Below, piece by piece: positions 6,759 through 27,234 of a stretch of 27,250 nt of DNA. How positions within the stretch are numbered: the first letter of the stretch is position 1; every line of letters starts with the position of its first letter. The notes under the pieces were generated by a model, which was given only the letters and a program-made list of their open reading frames with translations, did not search any database and had not been told where the DNA came from. A program made the translations under genes and the position numbers. This stretch comes from Patescibacteria group bacterium (GTDB lineage: Bacteria; Patescibacteriota; Patescibacteriia; Magasanikbacterales; GWA2-37-8), in NCBI GenBank assembly GCA_004321885.1, contig SCQK01000009.1:1-27250 (forward strand), in the 5' to 3' direction.

Positions 6759-6898
6759 TTTCAGGGTTCAATAGAATCCGTGGTTAGCATTATCACTATA
6801 CCAATTTTAATAATATTTGTCAATATCACCTATCCACACCCCCTTTACTAAATGTCTTTTGAGAGATAAGATATATCCAGAAAATTACCCCCACCCAA

Positions 6899-6921
6899 CC
6901 TCCCCCTTATCAAGAGGGAGG
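6899..6921 (+). repeat. family B hairpin element (CCTCCCCC-loop-GGGAGG) supplying the gatB RBS
   Basis: 'cctcccccttatcaagagggagg'. GGGAGG lies 12 nt upstream of the gatB ATG. Confidence 0.6.
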
Positions 6922-6932
6922 AAACAAATTGT

Positions 6933-8636: not shown

Positions 8637-8662
8637 CCACCCGTAGAGGGTGGTCTTTTTTT
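8637..8662 (+). terminator. intrinsic terminator/attenuator in the carA leader: CCACCC-GTAGA-GGGTGG followed by TCTTTTTTT
   Basis: 6-bp GC stem plus T-tract, 80 nt upstream of the carA ATG. Followed by a 19-bp interrupted stem (8665-8727) and an 8-bp stem 'aatccgcc-tttg-ggcggatt' abutting the start codon. Confidence 0.55.
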
Positions 8663-8741
8663 GATAACTCTCGAAATTTTGGAGCCATAGGCGAACAAAA
8701 TTTCGCAAGAGTTATCAATCCGCCTTTGGCGGATTACATTT

Positions 8742-9893
8742 ATGTACCCAGCACGGTTAATTTTAAACACCGGCCAAGAATTTCTCGGCCTTTCACCCGC
8801 CTGGCAAAAAGGCGACTTTTACGGTTTACCCTCACACCAAAAATTTTGGTGTGAGGGCGAGGTTGTTTTTACGACCGGCATGACCGGCTATGTGGAAACT
8901 CTCACCGATCCTTCGTATGCCGGACAAATTATCGTCTTCACCTATCCGCTCATCGGCAACTACGCCGTGCCGCCGGCCAAATTCTGGGAATCGGAAAAAA
9001 TCCACGCGGCCGGAGTGGTGGTAGGCGAGGCGTGCCAGTGGCCTGATACCCCCTCCTCACCTCCCTCCCGAAACAAGTTCGGGACAGGCTCTTATAAAGG
9101 GGGAGGGACTTTGGCCGGATGGCTAAGAGAACAAAAGGTGCCTTTACTCACCGGGGTGGATACTCGCCTGCTTACCAAAACACTACGCGAGAAGGGTGCC
9201 ACGCCCGGAGCGATTACGTCTTACCCCTACCTAACCTCCCCCTTAAAAAGGGGGAGGAACAGGAGGGGGTATAATTTCTTTGACCCGAACGAAACAGATC
9301 TGGTGGCGCTGGTTTCTCCCAAAAGACCGACCACTTACGGCAAGGGGAAAAAGAGAATCATCGCCGTTGATTGCGGGATGAAAAAAAATCTGCTCCGCTC
9401 ACTCTTAAAATTACCGCTGACTATAAAAATCGTGCCGTACGACTACGATTATAACAAAGAAAAATTTGACGGCGTGTTTATCTCCAATGGCCCGGGCGAC
9501 CCGGAACGTTGCGGCCGAACGATAGAAATTCTGCGCCGCGCCATGAAAAAGAAAAAACCGATTTTCGGCGTCTGTCTGGGCAACCAGCTGTTAGCACTGG
9601 CGGCCGGAGCCAAAACCTACAAACTGCCCTTTGGCCACCGCGGACAAAATCAACCCTGCCAAGACAGCGCCACTGGCCGTTGTTATATCACCAGCCAAAA
9701 CCACGGCTACGCCGTGAACCCGGCCACCCTGCCGCCGGACTGGCGCGTGAGTTTCAAAAACTTAAACGACGATTCAGTGGAAGGCATCGGCCACAAATCA
9801 TTGCCGTTTTTCGCCGTGCAATTTCATCCCGAAGCGGCGCCCGGCCCCGCAGACACGCAGTGGCTTTTTGAAAAATTTTATGAAACTTTATAA
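8742..9893 (+). CDS. carA: carbamoyl-phosphate synthase small (glutaminase) subunit
   Basis: 'VVFTTGMTGYVETLTDPSYAGQIIVFTYPLIGNY', 'PIFGVCLGNQLLALAAGAKTYKLPFGHRGQNQP' (catalytic Cys), 'FAVQFHPEA'. Two in-frame family B element insertions. Confidence 0.9.
   Translation: MYPARLILNTGQEFLGLSPAWQKGDFYGLPSHQKFWCEGEVVFTTGMTGYVETLTDPSYAGQIIVFTYPLIGNYAVPPAKFWESEKIHAAGVVVGEACQWPDTPSSPPSRNKFGTGSYKGGGTLAGWLREQKVPLLTGVDTRLLTKTLREKGATPGAITSYPYLTSPLKRGRNRRGYNFFDPNETDLVALVSPKRPTTYGKGKKRIIAVDCGMKKNLLRSLLKLPLTIKIVPYDYDYNKEKFDGVFISNGPGDPERCGRTIEILRRAMKKKKPIFGVCLGNQLLALAAGAKTYKLPFGHRGQNQPCQDSATGRCYITSQNHGYAVNPATLPPDWRVSFKNLNDDSVEGIGHKSLPFFAVQFHPEAAPGPADTQWLFEKFYETL
9049..9108 (+). repeat. family B element (compound) in-frame in carA
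   Basis: 'cccctcctcacctccctcccgaaacaagttcgggacaggctcttataaagggggaggg' encodes 'PSSPPSRNKFGTGSYKGGG'. Contains inner hairpin TCCCGAA-acaag-TTCGGGA. Confidence 0.6.
9235..9272 (+). repeat. family B element in-frame in carA
   Basis: 'cctccccc-ttaaaaa-gggggagg-aacaggagggggtat' encodes 'SPLKRGRNRRGY'. Confidence 0.65.
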
Positions 9894-12800
9894 AGTTATA
9901 ATTCTCGGTTCCGGAGGATTGCAAATCGGCCAGGCCGGCGAGTTTGATTATTCGGGCTCCCAGGCCATCAAGGCCCTGAAAGAAGAAGGCATCAAAACCG
10001 TGCTGGTAAACCCCAACATCGCCACTGTTCAAACCGACCCAAACATGGCTGACGCGCTCTATCTTCAGCCGCTCAATTTTCAAACACTTAAAAAAATTAT
10101 CGCCAAAGAAAAACCGGACGGCATTTTGCTCGGCTTTGGCGGACAAACCGCGCTCAATCTGGGTTTGGAACTGGATGAAAAAGCCGTACTCCAAAAATAC
10201 GGCATGGCCGTGCTGGGTAGCGATACGCAAACAATACGAACAGCCGAAGACAGAAATTTATTCAAAATCGCGCTGGCGAAAATCGGAGTGAAGACTCCGA
10301 AAAGTTTTACCGCGCGCGACGTGAATGAAGCGCTGGCCGCGGGAAAACAAATCAGCTACCCCTTGATGATTCGCAGCGGCTTCTCTTTGGGCGGACTTGG
10401 TTCCGGAAAAATCGCCGACGCGCGGGAACTGAAACAACGCGCAGGCGAAGCGCTCTCCGGCGCCCCGCAAATCCTGGTGGAAGAATACCTGGGCGGCTGG
10501 AAAGAAGTGGAATACGAAGTGGTGCGCGACAGAAAAGACAACACCATTATTGTCTGCAACATGGAAAACATGGACCCGATGGGCATCCATACCGGTGAGA
10601 GCATCGTGGTGGCGCCTTCGCAGACCTTGAACAACGAACAGTATCATCGCCTGCGCGAGCTGTCCATCAAAATCGCCCGCCACCTGAAAATCATCGGCGA
10701 ATGCAACGTGCAATTCGCCTTGCACCCGAAAACCGGCGACTATCGCGTGATAGAACTCAACCCGCGCCTGTCGCGTTCATCGGCTCTGGCTTCCAAAGCC
10801 ACGGGCTATCCCCTGGCCTACATCGCGGCCAAGCTGGCCATCGGCAAACTTTTGCCTGAACTCAAAAATTCAGTCACCAAAAAAACCTCGGCCTTTTTTG
10901 AACCGGCCTTGGATTATCTGACAATAAAAATTCCGCGCTGGGACACAAACAAACTGCGCTCGGCCGAACGCTCCATCGGCTCGGAGATGAAAAGCGTGGG
11001 CGAAGTGATGGCCATTGGACGCTCGTTTCCCGAAGCATTGCAAAAAGCCGTGCGTATGCTGAATATCGGCGCCGACGGGCTAAGCGATTATCCGTTTCCC
11101 ATCGCCGAACCGAAAAAAGAAATGGAGAACGCCACCGACCGACGTTTGTTCGCGCTTTACCAATTTTTTAAAAAAGGCGGCGGCGTAAAAGAAGCCGGGC
11201 AACTTACGAGTATAAACGAATGGTTTCTGGCGCACATCAAAAACATCGCGGCGCTGGAAAAAACAATCAAAAATAAACGACTAACGCCAGCCCTGCTTTT
11301 ACAAGCCAAGCAATTCGGCTTTAGCGACGTCGGTCTGGCAAAATTAAAAAATACTGACGAGAAAAAAATCAGGCGCCTGCGCAAAAAAAACAAAATCCTG
11401 CCGTGCTTTAAACAAATAGACACCCTGGCCGGCGAATATCCGGCCGAGACGAATTATTTATACGCCACCTACCACGGCGCCGGACACGATATCGCCGCTT
11501 TGGACAAAAAACCGATCATCGTCCTCGGCTCTGGTCCGTACGCCATCGGTTCGTCGGTGGAATTTGACTGGTGCGCCGTGAACACGGCCCGCGCCCTGCG
11601 CGCCTTGGACAAAAAAACAATAATGCTCAACTCCAATCCGGAAACAGTCTCCACTGACTACGACGAATCCGACCGTTTGTATTTTGAAGAGCTGACTTTG
11701 GAGCGCGTGGCTGACATCGCTGATTTTGAAGGCGGCGCGAAGGCGTCTTTTGAATCTACACCCGGCATTGTTGTTTCGGTCGGCGGACAAATCGCCAATA
11801 AAATCGCTCTGCCGCTTTTTGAAATGGGTTATAAAATTTTAGGCACCCCGCCCGTGGCCATAGACCAGGCCGAAGACAGACAAAAATTTTCCTCACTCTT
11901 GAATAAATTAAAAATAGACCAGCCGGAATGGATTGAGTCGGGTAATTTGAGTAAAGCCAAGGCTTTCGCCAAAAATTTCGGGTATCCGGTCCTGGTGCGG
12001 CCGTCATACGTGCTCTCTGGCGCGGCCATGAACGTGTGCCCGAACGAAGATGAACTGACAAACTATCTACGTTCGGCTTCGGCCGTTTCTCCCGACCATC
12101 CGGTGGTTATTTCCAAATTTATCACCAATGCCAAAGAGTTAGACATAGACGGAGTGGCCGACAAGGGAAAAATTATAATAGAAGCGATTTGCGAACACGT
12201 GGAAAACGCGGGCGTGCACTCGGGCGACGCCACCCTGGTCTTGCCCCCGCAAAAACTTTATTTGGAAACGATTCGCCGCGCCAAAAACATCGCTCGCGCC
12301 ATCGCCAAATCACTCAAAATCACCGGGCCCTTTAACATCCAGTTCATTGCCAAGGATAACGCGCTCAAAGTGATAGAGTGCAACTTGCGCGCTTCCCGCT
12401 CTTTTCCTTTCGTATCCAAAGTGACCGGACATAATTTCATAGAACTGGCCACCAAGGCCATGCTGGGCGGTGTTGGAGTTCCTCCCCCTCTTAGGGGGAG
12501 GATAAAGGAGGGGGTATTTGAAACCCTGGAGCTCAACCACGTCGGCGTGAAGTCGCCGCAATTTTCTTACCACCGACTGAAAGGAGCCGACCCGGTGGCG
12601 CAAGTGGAAATGGCTTCCACCGGAGAGGTGGCCTGTATCGGCGGCGATTATTTGCGCGCCTTTTATTCTTCCTGGCTGGCCACGGGCAAAAATATCAGCC
12701 GCCGCCGGGCGCTTGTCACCATTGCCGATGAATGCAAACAAAAATTCTTGCCATTAGTGAAAAAAATGGACAAACAGGGCTGGGAAATATATACTACTGC

Positions 12801-13110
12801 CGGCACCCACGACTTTTTGTCGCGCCACGGAGTGGCCAGCAACTTTGTTTACAAAATCAGCGAGCAAAACAAGCCGAACGTGGAGGCAACGATTTCAGAA
12901 AAGCAAGTTGACGTAATCATTGTCATTCCGAGCGAAGCGAGGAATCTCTGTTTATCAAACGACAGCGACGGCTACAAAATTCGCCGGCTGGCCACGGACC
13001 GCCACATCCCACTTATCACCAACTCGCAAACCGCTATTTTGCTCTTGCGCTGTCTCACCGAACTTGACGCCAATAAAATGCCGATAAAATCGTGGCAAGA
13101 ATATTTTTAA
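9868..13110 (+). CDS. carB: carbamoyl-phosphate synthase large subunit
   Basis: 1080 aa. Two ATP-grasp halves ('[20 protein letters not shown]', '[20 protein letters not shown]') and a C-terminal MGS-like domain. Overlaps the carA 3' end by 26 nt. Confidence 0.95.
12481..12517 (+). repeat. family B element in-frame in carB
   Basis: 'cctccccc-tctta-gggggagg-ataaaggagggggtat' encodes '[13 protein letters not shown]'. Confidence 0.7.
12921..12946 (+). repeat. family A short hairpin element in-frame in carB
   Basis: 'tgtcattccgagcgaagcgaggaatc' encodes 'VIPSEARNL' in the MGS-like domain. Confidence 0.6.
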
Positions 13111-13191
13111 TGTCATTGCGAGGAGCGGAGCGACGAAGCAATCCCATACAATTAAGGGGATTGCCACGGCCCTGCGGGCCTCGCAATGACA
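13111..13191 (+). repeat. family A full-length palindromic element filling the carB-pyrB intergenic space
   Basis: Begins immediately after the carB TAA. Termini 'tgtcattgcgagg...cctcgcaatgaca' are 13-bp perfect inverted repeats. Inner hairpin 'gcaatccc...gggattgc'. Confidence 0.75.
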
Positions 13192-13199
13192 ATACAATT

Positions 13200-14120
13200 A
13201 TGCCAAACACACTCAAAGGCAGGGACATAATTTCCATCGCGGAACTTTCCAAGCCGGAAATTCTGCTGGTGCTAAAAAACGCGCAAGAATTAAAAAAACA
13301 CCCGCGCCCGAAACTGCTGGAAGGGCTGGTGATGGGCAGTTGTTTTTTTGAACCCAGCACGCGCACGCGCTTGTCGTTTGAAACAGCCATGCAGAAGTTG
13401 GGCGGACGGGTAATCGGCTTTGCCGACCCGGGCGTGACTTCGGCCAAGAAAGGCGAGTCGCTGTACGACGCCATAAAAATCATCGGCCAATACGTGGATG
13501 TCATCGCCATGCGCCATCCGTTGGAGGGAGCGGCGCGACGCGCGGCCGAGGCCACGGACAAACCAATCATCAACGGCGGCGACGGAGCCAACCAGCACCC
13601 CACCCAAACCCTGCTGGACTTGTTCACTATTCAAGAATGCCAGAAAAAATTAAGCAACCTTCATATCGCCATGGTCGGCGACCTGAAATATGGCCGCACC
13701 GTGCACTCGCTGGCCCAGGCGCTTACCCATTTTGGCGCCCGCCTGTATTTCGTGGCGCCCGACAGCTTGCAGATGCCCGCGTATATTTGCGATGAATTAA
13801 AAACCAAAGGCGTCAAATTCTCCATGCACAAAAAAATGGAAGAGGTAATCGGCAAAGTTGATATTTTTTACATGACCCGCATCCAGGGCGAACGTTTTGC
13901 CGACCCGATGGAGTACGAAAAAGTAAAAAACAGTTTCGTGCTCAAGGCCGACATGCTAAAAAACGCCAAACCAAACCTGAAAATCTTGCACCCCTTGCCG
14001 CGCGTGAACGAAATTGAAACAGCCATAGACAAAACAAAATTCGCCTACTATTTCCAGCAAGCGGAAAACGGGCTCTATGCCCGCCAGGCCCTGCTGGCGA
14101 TGGTGTTGGGAAAAATTTAA
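13200..14120 (+). CDS. pyrB: aspartate carbamoyltransferase catalytic subunit
   Basis: '[11 protein letters not shown]', 'HPTQTLLDL' and 'LHPLPR' motifs. Start taken at 'MPNTLKGRD' (ATG 13200), just after the element. The ORF-track 13092 start reads through the palindrome. Confidence 0.9.
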
Positions 14121-14123
14121 TAA

Positions 14124-14208
14124 TGTCATTGCGAGGCCCAAGGGGCCGAAGCAATCTCAGACAAGTAAGGGATTGCCACGTCGGCCTGCAGGCCTCCTCG
14201 CAATGACA
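14124..14208 (+). repeat. family A full-length palindromic element filling the pyrB-pyrI intergenic space
   Basis: 'tgtcattgcgagg...cctcctcgcaatgaca'. Same architecture as 13111-13191, with a different centre. Confidence 0.75.
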
Positions 14209-14216
14209 AAAATTTT

Positions 14217-14681
14217 ATGAAAGAAAAAAAACTTTTGGTCAACGCCATAAAAAACGGCACGGTGATAGACCACATCACCGCCGGTAGCGCGCTCAAAATC
14301 ATCCGCATCCTCAATCTGGCCAGCCACGAAAAAGTCGTGACGGTCGGGCTGAACTTGCCCAGCAAATCCATGGGGCGCAAGGACTTAATCAAAGTAGCCG
14401 AGCGCGAACTTTCACCCGATGAAGTAAGCAGCGTGGCCATTCTGGCGCCGCAAGCCAGCATCAACATCGTCAAAAATTACGAAATAGTTAAAAAATTTAA
14501 AATAAAACTACCGGAAAAAATTGAGAGCGTAGTTGTTTGCCCCAACCCGAAATGCATTACCAACCACGAGCCCATGGCCAGCGTGTTTTTTATTCTGCCC
14601 AACGGCAAACACATTAAACTGCGTTGTAAATATTGCGAAAAAGTTTTTGGTCACGATGATATCCGTGAATATAGAGTATAA
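14217..14681 (+). CDS. pyrI: aspartate carbamoyltransferase regulatory subunit
   Basis: 'AIKNGTVIDHI', 'GLNLPSKSMGRKDLIKV', zinc domain 'CPNPKCITNHEP...LRCKYCEKVF'. Confidence 0.9.
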   Translation: MKEKKLLVNAIKNGTVIDHITAGSALKIIRILNLASHEKVVTVGLNLPSKSMGRKDLIKVAERELSPDEVSSVAILAPQASINIVKNYEIVKKFKIKLPEKIESVVVCPNPKCITNHEPMASVFFILPNGKHIKLRCKYCEKVFGHDDIREYRV

Positions 14682-14690
14682 AAACACCAT

Positions 14691-15857
14691 ATGAGCCGGC
14701 TCATAACTTTACCCGCTTTGATTGACCCGCACGTGCATTTTCGTACCCCGGGTTCCGAGCACAAAGAGGATTGGATTTGCGGAGCGCGCGCCGCCTTCGC
14801 CGGCGGATACACCACGGTGATTGACATGCCGAACAACAACCCGCCGGCGATTGATGAAGAGTCATTGAATAACAAAATCAAGCTCGTGGAACAACAACTG
14901 TCATTCCTGCGAAAGCAGGAAGGGAGCCCTTCGGGCTCGGAATTCATTTCTGTCCACCCATATTTTTATCTCGGGGTTACTCCCCTCCCCCTTGATAAGG
15001 GGGAGGCAGGGTGGGGGTCGGCGGTAGCCCTCAAAATGTTCATGGGTTCCAGCACCGGCAGTTTGCTGGTGGACAAATACGAAGACCAGGAAAAAATATT
15101 CGCCAAAGCCGCTGAACTTGATTTGCTGGTGGCAGTGCACGCAGAAGATGATGAAACAATAAAAAATAATCAACTGTCATTCCAGCAAAAGCTGGAATCC
15201 ATCGCCAATCCAGTCGCTCTTCACTCGCAAATCCGCTCGCGTGAGGCGGCGATAAAAGCCGTGTCGCAAGCGATTGAACTGGCGGAAAAGACCGGCGCGC
15301 GATTATATATCTGCCATATTAGCACAAAGGAAGAAGCTGAATTGGTTAAATCGGCTAAAGAGCGCGGAGCCAAAATTTATGCCGAAGTCACACCGCATCA
15401 TTTGTTTCTGAACGAAAGCGCGTATGAAACATTGGAGACAAAAGCGCAAATGAATCCGCCTCTGCGCACGGCCGCGGACCAAGCGGCGCTCTGGCAGGCG
15501 ATAAACGACGGAGTAATAGACACCATCGGCACCGACCACGCTCCGCATACTTTGGAAGAAAAAAATCAACCATACCCCAAATCGCCTTCGGGCGTGCCCG
15601 GCATTGAGACATGTTTGCCGCTATTGCTCAACGCGTACAATCAGGGTAAAATCAGTTTAGAGAAAATAGTGGAATTATGCCGGACAAATCCGCAAAAAAT
15701 ATTCCGTTTGCCTGATAACAGTGACGAGGTGATTGTGGATTTGGATTTGGAAAAAGAGGTAAAAAATGAGAATTTAAAAACTAAATGCGGCTGGTCGCCC
15801 TTTGCTGGGTGGAATCTAAAGGGGTGGCCGATAAAAACGATAATTATGAAAAAGTAA
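14691..15857 (+). CDS. pyrC: dihydroorotase
   Basis: 'LIDPHVHFRTPG' metal-binding motif, 'GTDHAPH'. Contains three in-frame element insertions. The stop codon lies inside the left terminal repeat of a MITE-like element. Confidence 0.85.
   Translation: MSRLITLPALIDPHVHFRTPGSEHKEDWICGARAAFAGGYTTVIDMPNNNPPAIDEESLNNKIKLVEQQLSFLRKQEGSPSGSEFISVHPYFYLGVTPLPLDKGEAGWGSAVALKMFMGSSTGSLLVDKYEDQEKIFAKAAELDLLVAVHAEDDETIKNNQLSFQQKLESIANPVALHSQIRSREAAIKAVSQAIELAEKTGARLYICHISTKEEAELVKSAKERGAKIYAEVTPHHLFLNESAYETLETKAQMNPPLRTAADQAALWQAINDGVIDTIGTDHAPHTLEEKNQPYPKSPSGVPGIETCLPLLLNAYNQGKISLEKIVELCRTNPQKIFRLPDNSDEVIVDLDLEKEVKNENLKTKCGWSPFAGWNLKGWPIKTIIMKK
14899..14921 (+). repeat. family A short hairpin in-frame in pyrC
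   Basis: 'tgtcattcctgcgaaagcaggaa' is TTCCTGC-GAAA-GCAGGAA. Encodes 'SFLRKQE'. Followed by a small hairpin 'gagccc-ttc-gggctc'. Confidence 0.7.
14982..15018 (+). repeat. family B element in-frame in pyrC
   Basis: 'cccctccccc-ttgataa-gggggagg-cagggtgggggt' encodes 'PLPLDKGEAGWG'. Confidence 0.7.
15175..15198 (+). repeat. family A short hairpin in-frame in pyrC
   Basis: 'tgtcattccagcaaaagctggaat' is ATTCCAGC-AAAA-GCTGGAAT. Encodes 'LSFQQKLE'. Confidence 0.7.
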
Positions 15858-16014
15858 GAAATTTGAACGGTGGTCTCGCTCGGATAGTTACGGACTCGCT
15901 GTCGCTTTTTGACCCAATGAGCATAATCGCATGGATCAAAATGCCTTCGGCACCGCTCCAACTCGTCTCGTAACTGCACCTCGCTCGCCCAATGTTCAAA
16001 TTTCTTACTTTTTC
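15848..16014 (+). mobile_element. MITE-like element: 21-bp perfect terminal inverted repeats flanking about 125 bp
   Basis: Left 'gaaaaagtaagaaatttgaac' (15848-15868) is the exact reverse complement of right 'gttcaaatttcttactttttc' (15994-16014). The interior carries direct 'CTCGCTCG' repeats. The pyrC TAA is within the left repeat. Confidence 0.5.
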
Positions 16015-16028
16015 TCACATCCATTTTT

Positions 16029-16982
16029 ATGAAACATCTAATCTCCCTAAAGGAACAAACAAAAGAAGACCTGCTGGAAATTTTGGATTTAGCAAAAAAA
16101 GTTAAAGCCACATACAAGGCCGGTGAGACGATGGAGCCATTAAAAAACAAAACCCTGCTCATGCTTTTTCAAAAAAGCTCCACGCGCACGCGCCTGTCGT
16201 TTGAGGCCGGCATAACCGAACTGGGCGGACACGCCATTTTTCTGGACAGCCGCGCCACGCAATTTTCGCTCACTGATTTCGGCGATGAAATAAAAGCCGT
16301 AATGCGCTTTGGCGACATCCTGATGTTTCGGGCCATGAAAGCGGCGGACGTGGAAAAGGCGGCGGGCTTCAATCAGATTCCGGTGATAGACGGTTGCAGT
16401 GAAAAATATCACCCGTGCCAGGCCTTGGGAGACATTTTGACAATGAGTGAGCATGCCAATGGACTGGAAAACGTGAAAAAAATCACTTGGCTGGGAATTG
16501 AAAACAACGTCTCTAACACCCTGACGCTGGCCGGCGCCAAACTGGGAATTGAAGTGACCATCGCCGCGCCCGAAGCCAACCCGGCCAGCGTGGACGCGGA
16601 GTTAAACGCCCAGGCCTCTGCCGTCGGCAAAGTGACACGCACTTTGAATTTGGCCGAAGCGCTGGCTGGCGCGAATTTCATCCACACCGACACCTGGATG
16701 GATATGGAATTTTTTTCCGACGGAAAAGTGAAGCCGCAATTTGAAGCCGAATACGAACGGCGCAAACGGGTGTTCACGCCTTTTCAACTAAACGCGGGCT
16801 TAATAAACACCCACGCCCCGCAAGCGAAAATTATGCACTGCATGCCGTGTCATGTGGGCTATGAAATTTCACGCGACGCCATAGACCATCCCAATTCAAT
16901 AATTTTTGACCAGGCGGAAAATCGCAAACACATCCAAAAAGCGATTATTCTTTGGCTACTTGGTATTCCCTCCCCTTTATAA
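16029..16982 (+). CDS. ornithine-carbamoyltransferase-family transcarbamylase paralog (substrate uncertain)
   Basis: 'STRTRLSFE', 'HPCQALGDILT', 'HCMPC' (OTC HCLP-type) and a C-terminal 'SIIFDQAENRKH' closely like OTCase. The ornithine-binding 'DxxxSMG' is 'DTWMDME'. Confidence 0.75.
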   Translation: MKHLISLKEQTKEDLLEILDLAKKVKATYKAGETMEPLKNKTLLMLFQKSSTRTRLSFEAGITELGGHAIFLDSRATQFSLTDFGDEIKAVMRFGDILMFRAMKAADVEKAAGFNQIPVIDGCSEKYHPCQALGDILTMSEHANGLENVKKITWLGIENNVSNTLTLAGAKLGIEVTIAAPEANPASVDAELNAQASAVGKVTRTLNLAEALAGANFIHTDTWMDMEFFSDGKVKPQFEAEYERRKRVFTPFQLNAGLINTHAPQAKIMHCMPCHVGYEISRDAIDHPNSIIFDQAENRKHIQKAIILWLLGIPSPL

Positions 16983-17004
16983 GGGGAGGGTTAGGGTGGG
17001 GTAT
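16968..17004 (+). repeat. family B element spanning the OTC-paralog stop and the pyrD RBS
   Basis: 'ccctcccc-tttataa-ggggaggg-ttagggtggggtat'. The TAA stop of the upstream gene is inside the hairpin loop. GGGTGGGG lies 5 nt before the pyrD ATG. Confidence 0.7.
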
Positions 17005-17005
17005 T

Positions 17006-17917
17006 ATGCTCACCACAACTTTCCTCAACAAAACTTTCGCCAATCCCATCGTGCTCGCCTCGGGCATTCTTGGCGTGTCGGCCGCCAGTTTGGCGCGGGC
17101 GGTGAAAGATGGCTGCGGCGGAGTGACGGCCAAGTCGGTCTCGCTTGAACCGCGCTCCGGTCATCCCAATCCCACCACCGCCGGCATGGAGCATTTTTTC
17201 ATCAACGCGGTTGGACTTTCCAACCCGGGCGTGGACGCGGCGGTGGAAGAACTGAAAAAATTCAAAGAATTATCCGTCTCACCGCTCATCGGCAGTATTT
17301 TCGCGGGCACGCCTGAGGAGTTCGCCGTCGTGACGGAAAAAATTTGCGCGGCGCCAATTGATTTTCTGGAAATCAATGTTTCCTGCCCGAACGTAAGCAA
17401 AGAATTCGGCAAACCGTTTGCTTACTCCACCGAAGCCGTGGAAATTATCACCAAAAAAGTAAAAGCCAAAGCGACTGTGCCGATAATAATAAAACTTTCT
17501 CCCAATGCCTGGAACATAGACGAAATCGCGCTGGCGGCCGAAACCGCCGGCGCCGACGCCCTTTGCGCCGTCAACACCATCAGCGGCATGATAATTGACT
17601 GCCACAGCCGCAAACCGATATTGCACAACAAACAGGGCGGGGTTTCGGGTCCGGCGCTGCTGCCTATCGCGCTAAAATGCGTGTATGACATTTACAAAAA
17701 AGTGAAAATTCCCATCATTGGCACAGGCGGCATTTGTTCTGGCGAAGACGCGCTGGCCATGATTATGGCCGGAGCGGCTTTGTTGGGTGTTGGCTCGGCC
17801 GTGTATTTCCGCGGGAGCGAGGTGTTTGAAAAAATTTGCGAGGAGATGGAGAAAATAATGGAAGAGGAAGGGATAAAAAATTTGGAGGAAATCCGCGGCG
17901 CGGCGCACTCATCATGA
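17006..17917 (+). CDS. pyrD: dihydroorotate dehydrogenase (class 1B) catalytic subunit
   Basis: 'NPIVLASGILG', 'GLSNPGVDA', 'NVSCPN', 'IIGTGGICSGEDA'. Start taken at 'MLTTTF' after the element-supplied RBS. Confidence 0.85.
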   Translation: MLTTTFLNKTFANPIVLASGILGVSAASLARAVKDGCGGVTAKSVSLEPRSGHPNPTTAGMEHFFINAVGLSNPGVDAAVEELKKFKELSVSPLIGSIFAGTPEEFAVVTEKICAAPIDFLEINVSCPNVSKEFGKPFAYSTEAVEIITKKVKAKATVPIIIKLSPNAWNIDEIALAAETAGADALCAVNTISGMIIDCHSRKPILHNKQGGVSGPALLPIALKCVYDIYKKVKIPIIGTGGICSGEDALAMIMAGAALLGVGSAVYFRGSEVFEKICEEMEKIMEEEGIKNLEEIRGAAHSS

Positions 17918-17921
17918 ATGT

Positions 17922-18067
17922 CCCCCTCCCCTATTTGCGAAAAGAGTGAGAGAAAAAGCAAACTTGTTGCTTTTTCCGAACGAATGAGCAAATATCCGCA
18001 GATATTAGGGGAGGGATAAACCCCGTTAGAGGTCTGCAGACCTCTAACGGGGTAAAGGGTGGGGTTA
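17922..18067 (+). repeat. compound family B region in the pyrD-pyrK intergenic space
   Basis: 'cccctcccc' (17922) pairs with 'ggggaggg' (18008) across a 70-nt insert that contains AAAAAGCAA-acttg-TTGCTTTTT. This is followed by a perfect hairpin 'ccccgttagaggtctgcagacctctaacgggg' (18021-18052). A 'taaagggtggggtt' SD-like tail precedes the pyrK ATG. Confidence 0.6.
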
Positions 18068-18072
18068 AACGT

Positions 18073-18945
18073 ATGGATAGTACAAAATTCTTAAAAATAG
18101 AAAAAATAACAGACGAAACCCCGTTCGTCAAAACATTCTATTTTAATCATCGCCTAAACAGCAAGCCCGGGCAATTTGTGATGCTCTGGCTACCGGGAAT
18201 TGACCAAAAACCGTTTTCCATCGGCTGGGAAGATGAAAACGGCTTTGCCCTGACTGTGTTCAATCGCGGACCGACGACGAACAAACTGTTTGAAATGAAA
18301 GCCGGCGAACGAGTGGGCATTAGCGGGCCCTACGGTACTTCTTTTTCCGTGCGCCCAAACACGCGCTATATCATGGTCGCCGGCGGCTATGGCGCCGCGC
18401 CTCTTTCTTTTTTGGCCAAGCAGCTATCTGTCATTGCGAGGAGCGTAGCGACGAAGCAATCCCAATCTACAAAAATTGATTTCCTCCTCGGCGCCCGCTC
18501 GGCCGAACACGTGCTATTTGAAGACCGTCTGTCAAAATTACCCAACACCAAAATCCACATCGCCACCGACGACGGCAGTAAGGGACATAAGGGATTTGTG
18601 ACCGACCTGCTTTCATCTGTCATTCCTGCGAAAGCAGGAATCCACGACAACTCACTGGATGCCCGTTTTCACGGGCATGACATATTCGTCTGCACTTGCG
18701 GCCCCGAACTGATGGAAAAAAAAGTTTTGGACGCTTGCAACGTCGCCGGCGTGGAATGCGAAATCAGCATTGAACGCTACATGAAATGCGGCGTGGGCGT
18801 GTGCGGACAATGCGCCGTGGACGACCTGGGCCTGCATATGTGCAAAGAAGGGCCGGTGGTAAGCGGCGCGCTCGCCAGTCAAATTAAAGAGTTCGGCGTC
18901 TACCATCGCGACAAAAGCGGGAAAAAAGTATACTTCGAAAATTAA
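18073..18945 (+). CDS. pyrK: dihydroorotate dehydrogenase electron-transfer (FAD/2Fe-2S) subunit
   Basis: FAD/NAD-binding fold and C-terminal 'CGVGVCGQCAV' cluster motif. Two in-frame family A insertions. Confidence 0.85.
   Translation: MDSTKFLKIEKITDETPFVKTFYFNHRLNSKPGQFVMLWLPGIDQKPFSIGWEDENGFALTVFNRGPTTNKLFEMKAGERVGISGPYGTSFSVRPNTRYIMVAGGYGAAPLSFLAKQLSVIARSVATKQSQSTKIDFLLGARSAEHVLFEDRLSKLPNTKIHIATDDGSKGHKGFVTDLLSSVIPAKAGIHDNSLDARFHGHDIFVCTCGPELMEKKVLDACNVAGVECEISIERYMKCGVGVCGQCAVDDLGLHMCKEGPVVSGALASQIKEFGVYHRDKSGKKVYFEN
18429..18463 (+). repeat. family A half-element in-frame in pyrK
   Basis: 'tgtcattgcgaggagcgtagcgacgaagcaatccc' matches the left 35 nt of the 13111 element with one mismatch. 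Encodes 'SVIARSVATKQSQ'. Confidence 0.75.
18618..18642 (+). repeat. family A short hairpin in-frame in pyrK
   Basis: 'tgtcattcctgcgaaagcaggaatc' matches the pyrC copy at 14899. Encodes 'SVIPAKAGIH'. Confidence 0.75.
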
Positions 18946-19082: not shown

Positions 19083-19730
19083 CTACTTGCCGCGAGGAAG
19101 GAGATAGGAGGCGCCGAAGCCGTAGACAACCCAGCGGACGTCCAGCACCCAGCGAGCGCCGACCCAGGAGAGACAGGCCACGTAGAGGCCGCCACGCCGG
19201 CCGCGCAAAAGCGTGCCCGGCAGGACGATGATCTTGTCCTGCATCTCCTTCGGGATCTCGGCCTGGCACTCCAGCATACGCTTGCCATCCACCAGGCCGT
19301 AGTTGGCCTTGAGGACGACGGCGCGGGCGCGCATGACCTCGCCGTTGACATAGCCCGGGTCATCGGGCTCGAGGAAGGACACATACTCCAAGTCCTTCAC
19401 CTCGAACTGCGACGGGGCCACATCCTCCACCACCTCCCACTTGCGCTTCTTGCCTGCCTCGTCCTCGTACTCGGGGATGAGGTCGGCGGCGAGCAACTCG
19501 GACGGGAGCTGGTCGCGCTTGATCGATGCCGCCACGCTTTCGCCGTTTTCCTCGCCGATCGGCTCCAGCTTCAGCCGGAGCTTGCCGGCGCGAAACAGCT
19601 CCACGTTCTGCGCGCCCGTCTCACATCCGCCGAACTCCGCCCACAGCTTGAGGATCATGGCCCAGATCTGCTTCCCTGTCAGACCCTCCAGCACGGCCTC
19701 CAGTGTCTTCCCTTCCACTCTCGAACTCAT
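19083..19730 (-). CDS. hypothetical protein in a GC-rich (about 62% GC) inserted segment
   Basis: ATG with AAGGAG 7 nt upstream. Balanced E/K/D/L composition, unlike the Ala/Arg/Leu-rich overlapping frames. Terminator downstream. Interrupts pyrK...pyrE. Confidence 0.5.
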   Translation of the reverse strand: MSSRVEGKTLEAVLEGLTGKQIWAMILKLWAEFGGCETGAQNVELFRAGKLRLKLEPIGEENGESVAASIKRDQLPSELLAADLIPEYEDEAGKKRKWEVVEDVAPSQFEVKDLEYVSFLEPDDPGYVNGEVMRARAVVLKANYGLVDGKRMLECQAEIPKEMQDKIIVLPGTLLRGRRGGLYVACLSWVGARWVLDVRWVVYGFGASYLLPRGK

Positions 19731-19975: not shown

Positions 19976-21031
19976 ATGTTTGAACCAAAGTATAAAATCA
20001 CCAATCAAATCATCCAGATGCTCACCGCCATCGCCGAGGCCAAGGCGATTATTGAACGCGCGCGCCTTTTGCCGAAGCACGAACTCAAACTGCGACGCCA
20101 GGCCCTTCTCCGCATGACCCACAGCTCCACGGCCATAGAAGGCAACCGGCTGAATATGCGCGAAGTGGAGGCCGTGGCGGCGCGCAAAAAAGTGGATGCC
20201 CCGGAACGCGAAATCTATGAAGTAAAAAACTACCTGGAAGCGATTCGCTACATTGAAAAAGTCGTAAAAAACAACCAGCCAATCACCGAAAAGATTATCT
20301 TACAAATTCACCGGCTTGTAACCGACAAAACTTTGCCGGCACATTCCTCGGGGCAATATCGCAAAGGGCCGGTGTATGTGGTGCGGCGCTGGAGAGACGG
20401 CCGCCAGGAAGTTTTGTATACCGCGGCTGGCGCCGGACAAGTCCCCGGTCTTATGGCCGGCTTAACGCGCTGGCTCGCTGAAAGTGAAACGCAAAATATC
20501 AGCCCAGTCATCGTGGCCGGTATCGCGCACCAGGAAATCGCGGCTATTCACCCCTTTGCCGACGGTAATGGCCGCACCGCGCGCGCCCTGGCCACGCTTA
20601 TCCTTTACCGACGCGGCTACGACTTTCGCCGCCTTTTCGCCCTGGAAGATTTCTACAACGAAGACAGGCCGTCGTATTATCGCGCCATCAACGTCGGCAA
20701 AAACTACCAACAGCGCCGCGTTGATTTTACGCCATGGCTGGAATATTTTGTGCGCGGATTTAAGGAAGAAATTATTAAAGTGAAAAATAACGTGCTCACA
20801 CTATCGGCCAAAAAGGTTGACAAAAAAATTGAAGCGCAAATTTATCTTGATAAAGACCAGCTCAAAATTTTGGAGTTTGCCGACCAGATGGGAAAAATAT
20901 CCGTGGGCGACGTGGTGGATATTTTGAGTTGTCCCAAACGCACCGCCCAATCGTATCTACAAAAATTAAAAAAACTGAAAATTATCCGGCAAGTCGGCAA
21001 AGGGCCGGCCAGCGGATATATAATAGCGTGA
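19976..21031 (+). CDS. fic: Fic/Doc family protein (class II, N-terminal inhibitory helix) with C-terminal winged-helix domain
   Basis: Fic motif 'HPFADGNGRTARAL'. Inhibitory motif 'STAIEG' ([ST]xxxE[GN]) near the N-terminus. C-terminal HTH-like 'ISVGDVVDILSCPKRTAQSYLQKL'. Stop is 6 nt before the pyrE ATG. Confidence 0.85.
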   Translation: MFEPKYKITNQIIQMLTAIAEAKAIIERARLLPKHELKLRRQALLRMTHSSTAIEGNRLNMREVEAVAARKKVDAPEREIYEVKNYLEAIRYIEKVVKNNQPITEKIILQIHRLVTDKTLPAHSSGQYRKGPVYVVRRWRDGRQEVLYTAAGAGQVPGLMAGLTRWLAESETQNISPVIVAGIAHQEIAAIHPFADGNGRTARALATLILYRRGYDFRRLFALEDFYNEDRPSYYRAINVGKNYQQRRVDFTPWLEYFVRGFKEEIIKVKNNVLTLSAKKVDKKIEAQIYLDKDQLKILEFADQMGKISVGDVVDILSCPKRTAQSYLQKLKKLKIIRQVGKGPASGYIIA

Positions 21032-21037
21032 TTTTTT

Positions 21038-21634
21038 ATGCTCAAGAAACTAATCATCAAACTCCACGAAATCAACGCCGTCAAATTCGGGGAATTCAAA
21101 TTAAAAAGCGGAATAATGTCGCCGATATACATTGACTTGCGGGTGACGATTTCTTATCCCGAAGTTTTGAAAATGGTGGCCGAGGCCATGTGGGAAAAAG
21201 TCAAAGACGTTAATTTTGATTTGATTTGCGGAGTGCCTTACACCGCCCTGCCCATTGCCACGGCCATTTCTCTGGCGCATGACAAACCAATGATCATGCG
21301 GCGCAAGGAAGTAAAGGACTATGGCACGAAAAAAGCGATTGAAGGCGCGTTTGTCGCCGGACAAAAAGTATTGGTGGTGGAGGATTTGGTGACGAGCGGC
21401 AGTAGTGTGTTTGAAACGATTGAACCTTTACAACACGAAGGATTGACGGTGAGCGATATTGTGGTGTTGGTGGACCGCGAACAGGGCGGCCGCAAGCATC
21501 TGGCGGAAAAAGGGTTTAATTTACATTCGGTTTTGACGATTTCGGAAATGTTAGCTGTTTTGGTAGAAGCCAGTAAATTGGACAACGCGATGGCGGATAA
21601 GGTGAAAGATTTTATAAACGCGAATCAAGTATAA
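21038..21634 (+). CDS. pyrE: orotate phosphoribosyltransferase
   Basis: 'KFGEFKLKSGIMSPIYIDLR' and PRPP motif 'VLVVEDLVTSGSS'. Confidence 0.9.
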   Translation: MLKKLIIKLHEINAVKFGEFKLKSGIMSPIYIDLRVTISYPEVLKMVAEAMWEKVKDVNFDLICGVPYTALPIATAISLAHDKPMIMRRKEVKDYGTKKAIEGAFVAGQKVLVVEDLVTSGSSVFETIEPLQHEGLTVSDIVVLVDREQGGRKHLAEKGFNLHSVLTISEMLAVLVEASKLDNAMADKVKDFINANQV

Positions 21635-21640
21635 CAAATA

Positions 21641-21754
21641 CCCCTCCCCCACCCTCCCCTTATAAAGGGGAGGGTGCAATTTTCCTCCCCCTTTATAAGG
21701 GGGAGGCTCGCCACCACACCAAATGCTTTGGTGTGGTGGCGAGGAGGGGGTAAA
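21641..21754 (+). repeat. two tandem family B hairpins plus a 14-bp perfect hairpin and SD tail in the pyrE-pyrF spacer
   Basis: 'ccctcccc-ttataaa-ggggaggg', 'cctccccc-tttataa-gggggagg', 'ctcgccaccacacc-aaatgcttt-ggtgtggtggcgag' (21707-21743), then 'gagggggtaaaaatt' before ATG. Confidence 0.7.
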
Positions 21755-21758
21755 AATT

Positions 21759-22520
21759 ATGAAATACAAACAACGCGCCGAGATGTGCGCCAATCCGACC
21801 GCCAAAAAATTACTTGAATTGATGAATGAGAAACAAACAAACCTGGCGCTGGCCGCGGACGTGACGACCAAAAAAGAACTGCTGGAAATCGCCGACACGT
21901 TGGGGCCGGAAATCTGCGTGCTTAAAACGCACATTGATATTATTGGGGATTTTGATTCTGATTTAATCATCCAGCTTCAGCGCTTATCAGAAAAACACAA
22001 TTTTCTTTTTTTTGAAGACCGCAAATTCGCTGATATTGGAAACACGGTCATGCACCAATACCAAGACGGCATTTATCACATCGCGGACTGGGCGCATATC
22101 GTGAACGCGCACACTGTTCCGGGTCCTGGAATTATTGATGGATTAAAAGAAGTGGGTCTGCCCAAAGGGCGCGGGTTGCTATTACTGGCGGAAATGAGCT
22201 CCAAAGGCGCTTTGGCGAGCGGCGCCTACACCGAAAAAACGATAAAAATGGCGCAGGCCAACAAGGATTTTGTCGTCGGCTTTATCACTATGCGCCAGCT
22301 AATTGACGACCCGTGTTTTATAAACTTCACGCCCGGGGTTCAGCTCGCCCAAGGAGCGGACGCGCTGGGCCAGCAATACAACACTCCGGAAAACGTCATC
22401 GCCAAACAAAAATCCGACATTATTATTGTCGGACGAGGCATTTACAAGGCCGCGGACCCGGTCGCCGAAGCGAAAAAATATCGCGAGGCCGGTTGGAAGG
22501 CCTACACTTCTATTATTTAA
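21759..22520 (+). CDS. pyrF: orotidine-5'-phosphate decarboxylase, eukaryote (URA3)-like type
   Basis: 'YKQRAE...[20 protein letters not shown]...[10 protein letters not shown]', '[16 protein letters not shown]', '[11 protein letters not shown]'. Long collinear similarity to fungal URA3 as I recall it. Start 'MKYKQRAE' after the element RBS. Confidence 0.85.
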
Positions 22521-24164: not shown

Positions 24165-24250
24165 ACCCCCTCCTCTGTCCTCCACCTAAAAGGGGGAGAA
24201 AAGTGACAGTGTTACCCCTCCCTCGCCCTCCCCTTATAAAGGGGAGGGAA
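24165..24250 (+). repeat. compound family B element in the nif3-hypothetical spacer
   Basis: 'cccccctcctctgtcctccacctaaaagggggag...cccctccctcgccctcccc-ttataaa-ggggaggg'. Confidence 0.6.
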
Positions 24251-25215: not shown

Positions 25216-25233
25216 AATATGTACCTAACTTTT

Positions 25234-25270
25234 CTCTCCCCTTTATAAGGGGAGAGACAGAGAGGGGTAA
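25234..25270 (+). repeat. family B element upstream of nif3
   Basis: 'ctctcccc-tttataa-ggggagag-acagagaggggtaat'. Confidence 0.65.
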
Positions 25271-26130: not shown

Positions 26131-26241
26131 AATGTCAAAATCCAAATTTCCAATATCAAATCAATTTTTAATGTCAAATTTCAAATGTCCAATTTGACAT
26201 TTGGATTTTTGTCATTGATTTGACATTGGAAATTTGACATT
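26131..26241. repeat. array of 9-11-nt 'TTTGACATT' repeats: three in - orientation, then three or four in + orientation
   Basis: 'aatgtcaaa' at 26131, 26170 and 26184 (variant). 'tttgacatt' at 26193, 26218 and 26233. 'tttgtcatt' at 26207. Near-palindromic centre 'aaatgtccaatttgacattt'. Lies in the efp upstream region and runs into the epmA 3' end. Confidence 0.7.
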
Positions 26242-27234
26242 AATATTCTCTATTTGGTCTTTCACGCTTTGAAACATTACCTCGTTTATATCCCTGGCTC
26301 CGGTAAACAATAATACCATGCGGTCAACCCCCAAGGCAATACCGGCCATGTCTTGGCGCGCTGCCTCGGGCAAGCCGGCAATCGCGGCGATAAAATCCGG
26401 GTCAACGCCCCAAACCGGCTTGCCCGCCCCCAGCCGCTTGTTTTTGTCTTCCTCCAAACGCTTTTTTTGCTCGGCCGCGTCGGTCAGTTCGCCAAAGGCG
26501 TTGGCCAATTCCAAACCGCCAATATACAATTCAAACCTCTCGGCGTAACGTTGGTCATGTTCGCACAAACGATTGAGCGAGGTCATCTGCTGGGGATAAT
26601 CATACACAAAAACCGGCCACTCGGCGCCCAGCTTTGGTTCTATTTCATTCAAAAAAATCTTAAAAAACAAATCTTCATAGGCGTCGCGCGGGTCCGCGGC
26701 GAAACCGCGCGCCAAAACCAGCTCGCGCATTTTTTCCAGCTCCAAATATTCATCCAAATTCACGCCAAGATATTTTTGCCACACTTCTTTCATGCTTAGC
26801 CGGTCCCAAACCCCCTCCTTTATTCTCCCCCTTGGGAGAGGAAGTTGAGAAGCAACAAACTTAAACAAATTTTCCGTGTCGTCCATTATCTCGGTCAGGG
26901 TTCCGGGGGCGCGGTACCACTCAATCATGGTAAATTCGGTGTTGTGCGTGCGGCCAAACTCTTCGTAGTCGCGAAAAACCTTGCCAATTTCAAAAATTTT
27001 TTCATAACCCGCAGCCAACAATTTTTTCAAGCCGTATTCGGGCGAAGTGCGCAGATAAAATTGTTCGGTCACGCCGTTTGGAGCGTGGAAAACCGCTGAC
27101 ACCGGGTTCAAATACGGCTCCTGGCTGGCCAAACGCACAGCCACGGGCGTGTCGGTCTCCACAAAACCCGCGCGCCAAAAAAATTCCCGGATTAACTTTA
27201 TTATCTGAATTCGCGCGTCATATATCCCGCGCAA
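26212..27234 (-). CDS. epmA: EF-P lysine beta-lysyltransferase (class II lysyl-tRNA-synthetase-like, GenX/PoxA)
   Basis: 'TSPEYGLKKLLAAGYEKIFEIGKVFRDYEEFGRTHNTEFTMIEWYRA' (class II motifs 1 and 2), 'GVDRMVLL'. Directly upstream of efp. Contains an in-frame family B element. The last roughly 13 aa are encoded by the repeat array. Confidence 0.8.
   Translation of the reverse strand: MRGIYDARIQIIKLIREFFWRAGFVETDTPVAVRLASQEPYLNPVSAVFHAPNGVTEQFYLRTSPEYGLKKLLAAGYEKIFEIGKVFRDYEEFGRTHNTEFTMIEWYRAPGTLTEIMDDTENLFKFVASQLPLPRGRIKEGVWDRLSMKEVWQKYLGVNLDEYLELEKMRELVLARGFAADPRDAYEDLFFKIFLNEIEPKLGAEWPVFVYDYPQQMTSLNRLCEHDQRYAERFELYIGGLELANAFGELTDAAEQKKRLEEDKNKRLGAGKPVWGVDPDFIAAIAGLPEAARQDMAGIALGVDRMVLLFTGARDINEVMFQSVKDQIENINVKFPMSNQ
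26808..26846 (-). repeat. family B element in-frame in epmA (- orientation)
   Basis: - strand 'cctctccc-aag-ggggagaa-taaaggagggggt' encodes '[13 protein letters not shown]'. Same tail as the carB copy. Confidence 0.7.

Follow-up and report, generated by a model that had tools for sequence, protein, structure and literature searches.

The window analyzed here is an entire contig of 27,250 bp from a Patescibacteria group bacterium (SCQK01000009.1), and it carries the gene string carA-carB-pyrB-pyrI-pyrC-X-pyrD-pyrK-(two foreign ORFs)-pyrE-pyrF (Table 1). X, the subject of this report, is an open reading frame (ORF) of 317 aa that runs from ATG to TAA and encodes a transcarbamylase in which the SMG motif of ornithine transcarbamylase (OTC) is replaced by D-M-E. 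The pyrB gene of the operon encodes a canonical aspartate transcarbamylase (ATCase; 383 bits with TIGR00670, whose cut-off is 237), and carAB, which encodes carbamoyl-phosphate synthetase (CPSase), is the source of carbamoyl phosphate (CP) in this operon. An earlier note on this DNA had described the ORF with its motifs STRTR, HPCQ, and HCMP and had placed it between pyrC and pyrD, all of which is borne out by ORF calling and the coordinates of the neighboring genes. The note had also put X next to a canonical pyrB/pyrI pair in a pyrimidine operon; X does lie in the same gene string as a canonical pyrB, but pyrB and pyrI are not its direct neighbors.

Annotation of the contig ORFs revealed no gene for argG, argH, arcC, or an ornithine-forming enzyme. 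An Rfam scan of the whole window at gathering thresholds returned zero matches, which means that no known riboswitch or leader lies in the pyrC-X spacer. A promoter and terminator scan of positions 15700-17100 gave no sigma-70-like promoter and no plus-strand terminator, which is weak evidence but leaves nothing against co-transcription of X with its neighbors.

Active-site motifs and family assignment

Both domains of X were recognized by Pfam (PF02729, N-terminal CP-binding, 130.7 bits; PF00185, C-terminal Asp/Orn-binding, 131 bits; cut-offs of about 29-30), and the best NCBIfam models were those for OTC. The hallmarks of the superfamily are present, namely SxRT (as STRTR), HPxQ (as HPCQ), the beta4 Arg (R101), and HxLP (as HCMP). 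In an alignment with E. coli ArgI, for which residue and motif roles were taken from PMC4581275, all residues of the ArgI CP site were kept (S55, T56, R57, T58, R106, which is R101 of X, H133, Q136, C273, and R319), as were K53, N167, D231, and M236 of the ornithine site. The remaining ornithine-site residues expected of an OTC, the Lys of FxKxSxRT, Asn167, Asp231, the Cys of HCLP, and Arg319, are thus all present, and changes among the ornithine- and CP-binding residues relative to ArgI are limited to Ser235 to Asp or Asn, loss of the SMG Gly, and Leu274 to Met. Residues 297-301 read ENRKH. Judged from its sequence, X is a working transcarbamylase of the trimeric type within the OTC branch. 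A pseudoenzyme was ruled out because every catalytic residue is conserved.

The second-substrate loop of X reads HTDTWMDME in context. Aligned by MAFFT with ArgI and four OTCs of the SMG type, X places its D221, D225, and M226 opposite D231, S235, and M236 of ArgI; the SMG Gly is without a counterpart, and 10-11 additional residues (EFFSDGKVKPQF) come next, which an AlphaFold2 (AF2) model draws as a short hairpin ahead of helix 236-252. The earlier note had given the OTC motif as TDVWVSMGE and aligned SMG with DME; ArgI indeed reads YTDVWVSMGE, and the MAFFT pairing confirms the register. Its description of an OTC-type protein that keeps the CP site and is missing DxxxSMG likewise stands, given the ArgI alignment and the NCBIfam scores. 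We considered the SDG within the insertion as a displaced SMG and rejected it, as the two residues ahead of G232 vary in the relatives of X and D/N225-M226-E227 is fixed.

Across these relatives, DxxxSMG is changed to Dxxx[D/N]ME with a conserved 10-residue hairpin, GDxNN to G[I/V]ENN, and HCLP to HCMP. X appears to differ from OTC through a coordinated rebuild of the second-substrate lid, in which the residues that hold the alpha-amino acid would stay in place.

The top solved structure by sequence was the OTC of Pyrococcus furiosus (1A1S; E=1e-62, 37% identity), which was also the top fold match of the AF2 model (pLDDT 90, pTM 0.90; TM 0.85). A Foldseek search against the PDB placed 1A1S first, with putrescine transcarbamylase chains of Enterococcus faecalis within one log of E-value; since OTC and putrescine transcarbamylase are not separable by fold, the ranking was dropped as evidence of specificity. 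With 1A1S and ArgI, X shares the two-domain fold, an identical CP site, the residues K53/N167/D231/M236/C273/R319, and a similar length free of extensions, and it differs from them in Dxxx[D/N]ME with the insertion of about 10 residues, in G[I/V]ENN, and in HCMP. The P. furiosus enzyme also works with a CP source of the carbamate kinase type (PMC6022934), a further likeness in view of the gene neighborhoods described below.

Other transcarbamylase families matched less well. X scored 114.1 bits with the ATCase model TIGR00670 (cut-off 236.95), and has no RxQxER loop and HCMP instead of HPLP. It scored 38.2 with the YgeW model NF005538 (cut-off 453), and the proline-rich and extended 120s loops of the knotted enzymes (AOTCase, SOTCase, and YgeW) are absent from X, which aligned over its full length with unknotted OTCs and showed no additional loops at these sites. 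The (T/S)RWQ(T/S)(T/M)G and HDLP motifs seen in DPTCase and DBTCase are missing as well, X retaining the Asp (DTWMDME) and carrying HCMP.

The D-M-E clade and its gene neighborhoods

The loop of X is shared by a large set of proteins. The 120 best database hits were 69-80% identical to X, apart from the entry for X itself at 100%, and D-T-W-x-[D/N]-M-E together with HCMP was present in all 120 except two whose sequences do not cover these motifs. When one genome per GTDB species was scanned, 170 genomes contained a close relative of X, and the best 80 of these were retrieved (64-80% identity); in what follows, motif counts refer to 88 retrieved matching loci and neighbor counts to the 80 species loci. 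The loop read DME in 45, NME in 35, D/N-[A/V]-E in 6, and DMQ in 1, so that 87 of the 88 conform to D/N-[M/A/V]-[E/Q]; HCMP was found in 83 of the 88, and the site corresponding to GDxNN of OTC was GIENNV in 66 and GVENNV in 15. M226, E227, F228, F229, and G232, all within the loop and its insertion, were invariant among 20 aligned members. Because the loop change is common to the whole clade, it is neither chance nor sequencing error. The identity of 64-80% across phyla and the invariant loop residues indicate that the D-M-E clade is under strong purifying selection, which predicts an active enzyme.

The closest relatives of X belong to Candidatus Magasanikbacteria, and the bacterial spread comprises Magasanik-, Falkow-, Kaiser-, Uhr-, Nomura-, Pacei-, Lipton-, Portnoy-, Nealson-, and Peregrinibacteria. 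Metagenome-assembled genomes (MAGs) labeled Woesearchaeota, Nanoarchaeota, Bathyarchaeia, and Methanosarcinales (L034, L040, L043, L050, L062, L064, L074, and L079) also encode this transcarbamylase, 67-71% identical to the protein of the candidate phyla radiation (CPR). An identity of about 70% across CPR and labeled archaeal MAGs implies CPR-DPANN transfer, or mis-binning.

In a protein library clustered at 50% identity, the clade formed a single full-length cluster (P0121, 71%) and some fragments. Well behind these came P0124 (50%) and a group with HDMP in place of HCMP (40-45%), both with a D-x-W-x-D-M-E-F loop. A neighbor-joining (NJ) tree of 120 sequences, mostly anonymous full-length representatives of the 50% clusters, united all D-M-E-type proteins in one clade beside the SMG-type OTCs, with bootstrap values of 68% for this super-clade, 96% for the CPR/DPANN clade, and 98% for the CPR/DPANN clade with P0124 and P0150.

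The sister proteins are informative by position. P0124 sits in an argG-argH-X-M20 peptidase cluster, X standing here for the D-M-E gene of each cluster; the HDMP-type P0273 lies in X-argJ-argB-argD-argG-argH, and P0129 in argB-argD-X. The contexts of two further HDMP-type proteins and of P0173 were uninformative. The HDMP group is uniformly D-[TS]-W-x-D-M-E plus HDMP and, where the organism is given, comes from Dehalococcoidales and Clostridia/Ruminococcus/Oscillospiraceae. One member, P0127, passes the OTC equivalog NF011379 (PRK14804) at 445 bits against a cut-off of 373, a model with which X scores 260.8. The group resembles the clade of X in its D-[TS]-W-x-D-M-E-F loop, G[VI]xNNV, the Met of HxMP, its members in arg operons, and the NJ grouping; it differs in its 40-45% identity, the Asp in place of Cys in HDMP, and a loop about five residues shorter. 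It too is annotated by homology, and we found no assay of a member.

To characterize the neighborhoods, ORFs were called in all loci and clustered, and key partners were checked by tblastn and NCBIfam models, in a view of 10 kb to either side of X. At least three pyr genes lay within this distance in 27 of the 80 loci, with pyrC adjoining X in 21 and pyrD in 19; the order pyrC-X-pyrD is therefore conserved, chiefly among genomes labeled Magasanikbacteria. X stood outside pyr operons in about two-thirds of the species sampled, and 46 of the 80 loci had no pyr gene at all. Carbamate kinase (CK; TIGR00746, 409 bits against 358) was encoded within 10 kb in 16 loci and adjoined X in 11; two loci hold it inside the pyr operon, as pyrB-pyrI-CK-pyrC-X. 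Genes for argG and/or argH (TIGR00032, 456 against 268; TIGR00838, 307 against 279.5) were present in five loci, among them OAT-argG-argH-X-purF in a Kaiserbacteria MAG (L036), argG-argH-X (L083), argG-argH-pyrB-pyrI-pyrC-X (L068), and argG-X-pyrD (L015), and in the latter two they are part of the same operon as X. The gene for ornithine--oxo-acid transaminase (OAT; TIGR01885, 453 against 378) was found in six loci.

Rarer partners were a pyridoxal-phosphate (PLP) decarboxylase of the Orn/DAP/Arg family straight after X (2/80; L013 and L019), a NodU/CmcH-type O-carbamoyltransferase (2/80, and likewise on a 963-kb contig), and the string YgeW-CK-X (2/80). An aspartate ammonia-lyase gene follows X in L003, L010, and L011 (NF008909, 515 against 510), which fits a module that uses aspartate (ATCase, ArgG) and releases fumarate (ArgH). 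None of the listed partner genes was seen in 26 loci, and an SMG-type OTC was absent from all 84 loci examined, so that none is at hand there to fill the OTC role in place of X. Proteins of 378-746 aa beside CK-X that were considered as ArcA candidates were judged by eye to be a flavodiiron-like protein, TsaD, FtsZ, and PNPase.

Two additional observations concern these loci. A conserved protein of 440 aa accompanies CK and the D-M-E gene in 6/80 (L024, L025, L035, L039, and L052 among them); it gave only a weak match to CobW/HypB/UreG P-loop proteins and matched no NCBIfam family. In some Magasanikbacteria (L003, positions 8643-9956; also L004 and L010), two genes are added between pyrC and the D-M-E gene. 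The first encodes a 117-aa pyruvoyl protein resembling S-adenosylmethionine decarboxylase (AdoMetDC; TIGR03330, below cut-off), and the second a third transcarbamylase of 309 aa with SLRTR, HPSQ, HCLP, and the loop ADEWWKNTKNY, which is neither of the SMG nor of the D-M-E type; its substrate may be polyamine-related.

Predicted reaction and competing interpretations

Together, these data suggest that X is probably an ornithine/citrulline transcarbamylase (L-ornithine + CP ⇌ L-citrulline + phosphate) of an uncharacterized non-SMG subfamily, because the amino-acid-binding residues are kept, the partner genes fit, and relatives with the same loop hold the argF position. The recurrent partners comprise makers of ornithine (OAT, ArgJ), users of citrulline (ArgG/ArgH), and handlers of CP (CK, CPSase, ATCase, and NodU-type enzymes). 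In the window, X would be co-transcribed with carAB and the pyr genes in what may be called a carbamoyl-phosphate operon, with ATCase and OTC as two branches drawing on a single pool of CP made by CarAB. With the CPSase genes directly upstream, X here probably runs from ornithine to citrulline, which would feed ArgG/ArgH encoded elsewhere. In relatives with CK, or without a CPSase in the operon, X may run in reverse and release CP.

Several points weigh against this assignment. DxxxSMG, the defining motif of OTC, is missing in X and in the whole clade, and Ser235, which contacts the carboxylate of ornithine in OTC (PMC4581275), is Asp or Asn throughout. X narrowly misses both the OTC equivalog TIGR00658 (279.1 against 280.85, short by 1.75 bits) and the OTC subfamily NF001986 (291.7 against 306). 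The pyr setting is conserved in 27 of 80 loci, with argG/argH near only three of these, and a pyrimidine-linked role would also fit such a distribution. Arginine deiminase was not found next to the CK-X pairs examined, and searches of the PDB and the literature turned up no assay, structure, or description of the D-M-E clade, whose members the databases already label 'ornithine carbamoyltransferase' by homology. Owing to the absent DxxxSMG and the narrowly missed model cut-offs, we do not file X as a canonical OTCase.

The rebuilt loop could instead give the CPR/DPANN clade another specificity, or an obligatory reverse direction, in which a scavenged ureido compound (citrulline or other) is phosphorolyzed and CP passes to ATCase, CK, or NodU-type O-carbamoyltransferases. 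We consider this rather doubtful; if true, ultra-small symbionts could make pyrimidines de novo, or ATP, without a CPSase.

A more specific version takes X for a catabolic OTC of the pyr operon, with citrulline phosphorolysis supplying CP to ATCase in lineages free of CPSase and with carAB gained secondarily in the window. Catabolic transcarbamylases serve as a CP source and are coupled to CK since the reaction is unfavorable (PMC6022934), and adjacency to CK, regarded as the hallmark of such enzymes, is seen in relatives of X. Among the 27 loci with a pyr operon, carB lies within 10 kb in only 4, and two have CK instead, although these carB counts cover no more than 10 kb on either side. In most related pyr operons gatB lies directly before pyrB, with no carAB between, where the window has carAB. 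The CarB of the window is 68% identical to proteins of three or four Magasanikbacteria and 65-67% to those of Chlamydiales, Simkaniaceae, and Verrucomicrobia (120 best matches), which points to a possible lateral gain of carAB in this lineage; the same match list was discarded as a gauge of how rare CPSase is, CarB being too conserved across phyla (65-68% to Chlamydiae). The ArcB of Pseudomonas aeruginosa (1DXH) matches X at E=1e-47, and relatives of X often stand beside CK, but ArcB keeps SMG, is about 335 aa long, and belongs to a type whose arginine deiminase is not found with the CK-X pairs. Citrulline phosphorolysis is thermodynamically unfavorable (PMC6022934), no source or transporter of citrulline was identified, and in the window, where CPSase is present, the need does not arise. 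We regard this role as unlikely; if most of the pyr-operon genomes truly lack CPSase, X could supply CP, with citrulline phosphorolysis pulled by ATCase.

That X acts on a new amine or ureido compound linked to pyrimidine metabolism, selected by an acidic, rebuilt loop that turns ornithine away, is decidedly unlikely. Here the replacement of the SMG Ser by Asp/Asn, the conserved insertion of 10 residues, the pyrC-X-pyrD placement kept in 19-21 of 80 species, and the scores under the OTC equivalog cut-offs would all be accounted for, and transcarbamylases without known motifs do exist (PMC4581275 and PMC6022934). Set against this, a protein 64-80% identical occurs without pyr genes in 46 of 80 loci, beside CK, argG/argH, and OAT; the sister D-M-E clades occupy argF positions; and the residues holding ornithine by its amino-acid end, K53, N167, and D231, are unchanged. 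The earlier note had been right to allow for a distinct uncharacterized clade, as the separate NJ clade and the distance in the 50%-clustered library attest, and the D-M-E proteins do not cluster inside the bona fide OTCases but beside them (68% NJ bootstrap). Its suggestion that X serves a pyrimidine-related or novel carbamoylation and not arginine metabolism finds no support, in view of the neighbors elsewhere (CK, argG with argH, OAT, and the PLP decarboxylase) and of the D-M-E relatives at the argF position. On present evidence, no new reaction is revealed.

Carbamoylation of putrescine or another polyamine in an agmatine-type pathway, with CP drawn from N-carbamoylputrescine for CK or for pyrimidines, is very improbable. 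Putrescine transcarbamylase (PTCase; E. faecalis, 4A8H/3TXX) is likewise of the unknotted OTC branch, without SMG, linked to CK, and nearly equal to OTC as a fold match, and the extra acidic residues of the loop would suit a substrate free of a carboxylate; CK adjoins X in 11 loci, a PLP decarboxylase follows it in L013 and L019, and the AdoMetDC-like protein is near in L003, L004, and L010. The PTCase model, however, gave 225.3 bits against a cut-off of 500 (TIGR04384), and the features particular to PTCase are absent: X has Lys in place of the Gln of FxQxSxRT, Asn at the position of Q164, no loop of the type (Y/W)(G/W)(V/L/I), and a C-terminus that lacks the helix of some 20 residues. Among the neighboring ORFs that were annotated, none stood out as an agmatine deiminase, and argG/argH and OAT as neighbors require ornithine or citrulline.

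Finally, an unknotted enzyme with the function of AOTCase or SOTCase, acting on N-acyl-ornithine, is barely conceivable: an M20 (ArgE-like) peptidase gene does follow P0124 and the larger loop could take an N-acyl group, but X scores 125.7 against 288 with the N-acetylornithine transcarbamylase model NF003384, has no proline-rich loop and no extended 120s loop, and belongs to a clade whose CPR/DPANN loci are without argA-E genes but have OAT, which yields free ornithine, as does the ArgJ found with the sister clade.

Should the D-M-E clade indeed work as an OTC, the DxxxSMG motif, which a 2015 review recommends for telling OTCases from other transcarbamylases (PMC4581275), would not be universal, being replaced in at least 170 CPR/DPANN species and in the HDMP relatives; both annotation rules and the picture of how ornithine is held would be affected. 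The clade is also among the few enzymes of amino-acid or energy metabolism that are about 70% identical between CPR and MAGs labeled DPANN, and its pairing with CK or pyr genes bears on the supply of CP in reduced organisms.

Repeats, insertions, and other features of the contig

The 171-bp spacer between pyrC and X holds an inverted-repeat element that folds into a single long hairpin (-60.6 kcal/mol, z = -7.3). Relatives in which pyrC and X abut (e.g. L005) do not have the element, which is probably an insertion resembling a miniature inverted-repeat transposable element (MITE).

Three families of short palindromic repeats are present on the contig, with several copies in frame in carA, carB, pyrC, and pyrK. 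The first, of about 38 nt (CCCTCCCCTTTATAAGGGGAGGG followed by GGGTGGGGTA), occurs in spacers and within the carA, carB, and pyrC frames; its copy at 16966 provides the last five codons of X (IPSPL) and the stop, and fills the spacer to pyrD. The second has the form TGTCATTGCGAGG...GCGACGAAGCAATCC, and the third reads TGTCATTCCTGCGAAAGCAGGAA. Alignment with orthologues revealed window-specific in-frame insertions in pyrK (IARSVATKQSQS; PAKAGIHDNSLDARFHGHD) and pyrC, and in L018, a relative, the same pyrK sites hold similar insertions. By analogy, these in-frame palindromes resemble the Rickettsia palindromic elements that insert into genes.

Table 1 Coordinates of X, its motifs, and other features of the window
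Feature	Position	Strand	Basis
X, transcarbamylase of the non-SMG D-M-E clade	16029..16982	+	ORF, Pfam, NCBIfam, PDB match, AF2 model
FQKSSTRTR, residues 47-55, phosphate-binding SxRT with OTC-type Lys K49 (= ArgI K53)	16167..16193	+	ArgI alignment
HPCQ, residues 128-131, carbamoyl-binding motif	16410..16421	+	ArgI alignment
GIENNV, residues 156-161; ornithine-binding Asn (ArgI N167) kept, GD of OTC GDxNN replaced by GI	16494..16511	+	
Second-substrate (240s/SMG) loop, D221-T-W-M-D225-M226-E227, then insertion FFSDGKVKPQF	16689..16742	+	
HCMP, residues 270-273; OTC HCLP with Leu to Met, Cys retained	16836..16847	+	
carA (8742-9893), carB (9868-13110), glutamine-dependent CPSase	8742..13110	+	Pfam
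pyrB (13200-14120), pyrI (14217-14681), pyrC (14691-15857)	13200..15857	+	Pfam/NCBIfam
pyrD (17006-17917), pyrK (18073-18945)	17006..18945	+	
pyrE (21038-21634), pyrF (21723-22520)	21038..22520	+	
Inverted-repeat element, 26-nt arms with 115 nt between, in pyrC-X spacer	15848..16014	.	folding, repeat search
Palindromic family of ~38 nt, copies	6885-6923, 9221-9271, 12478-12515, 14981-15018, 16966-17003, 21638-21719, 24212-24250, 25232-25270		
Second palindromic family	13108-13201, 14121-14171, 18426-18476		
Third palindromic family	14895-14921, 15171-15197, 18614-18640		
Likely foreign segment	19001-21031		
ORF of 215 aa, unknown, no Pfam hit	19083-19730	-	
Fic/DOC-domain gene	19976-21031		
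ORF of 1072 aa, helicase-methyltransferase fusion	51-3269		
Short direct and inverted repeats	26139-26243		

The segment that separates pyrK from pyrE, which are adjacent in most relatives, has a GC content of 0.59 against about 0.50 and is likely a foreign insertion. Near the start of the contig, a single ORF combines a helicase of the SNF2 type and a methyltransferase domain. Clustered short repeats, both direct and inverted (ATTTCAAATGTCCAATTTGACATT-like), lie in the spacer between efp and a gene resembling those of class II aminoacyl-tRNA synthetases, and may be operator sites or a replication-related array.

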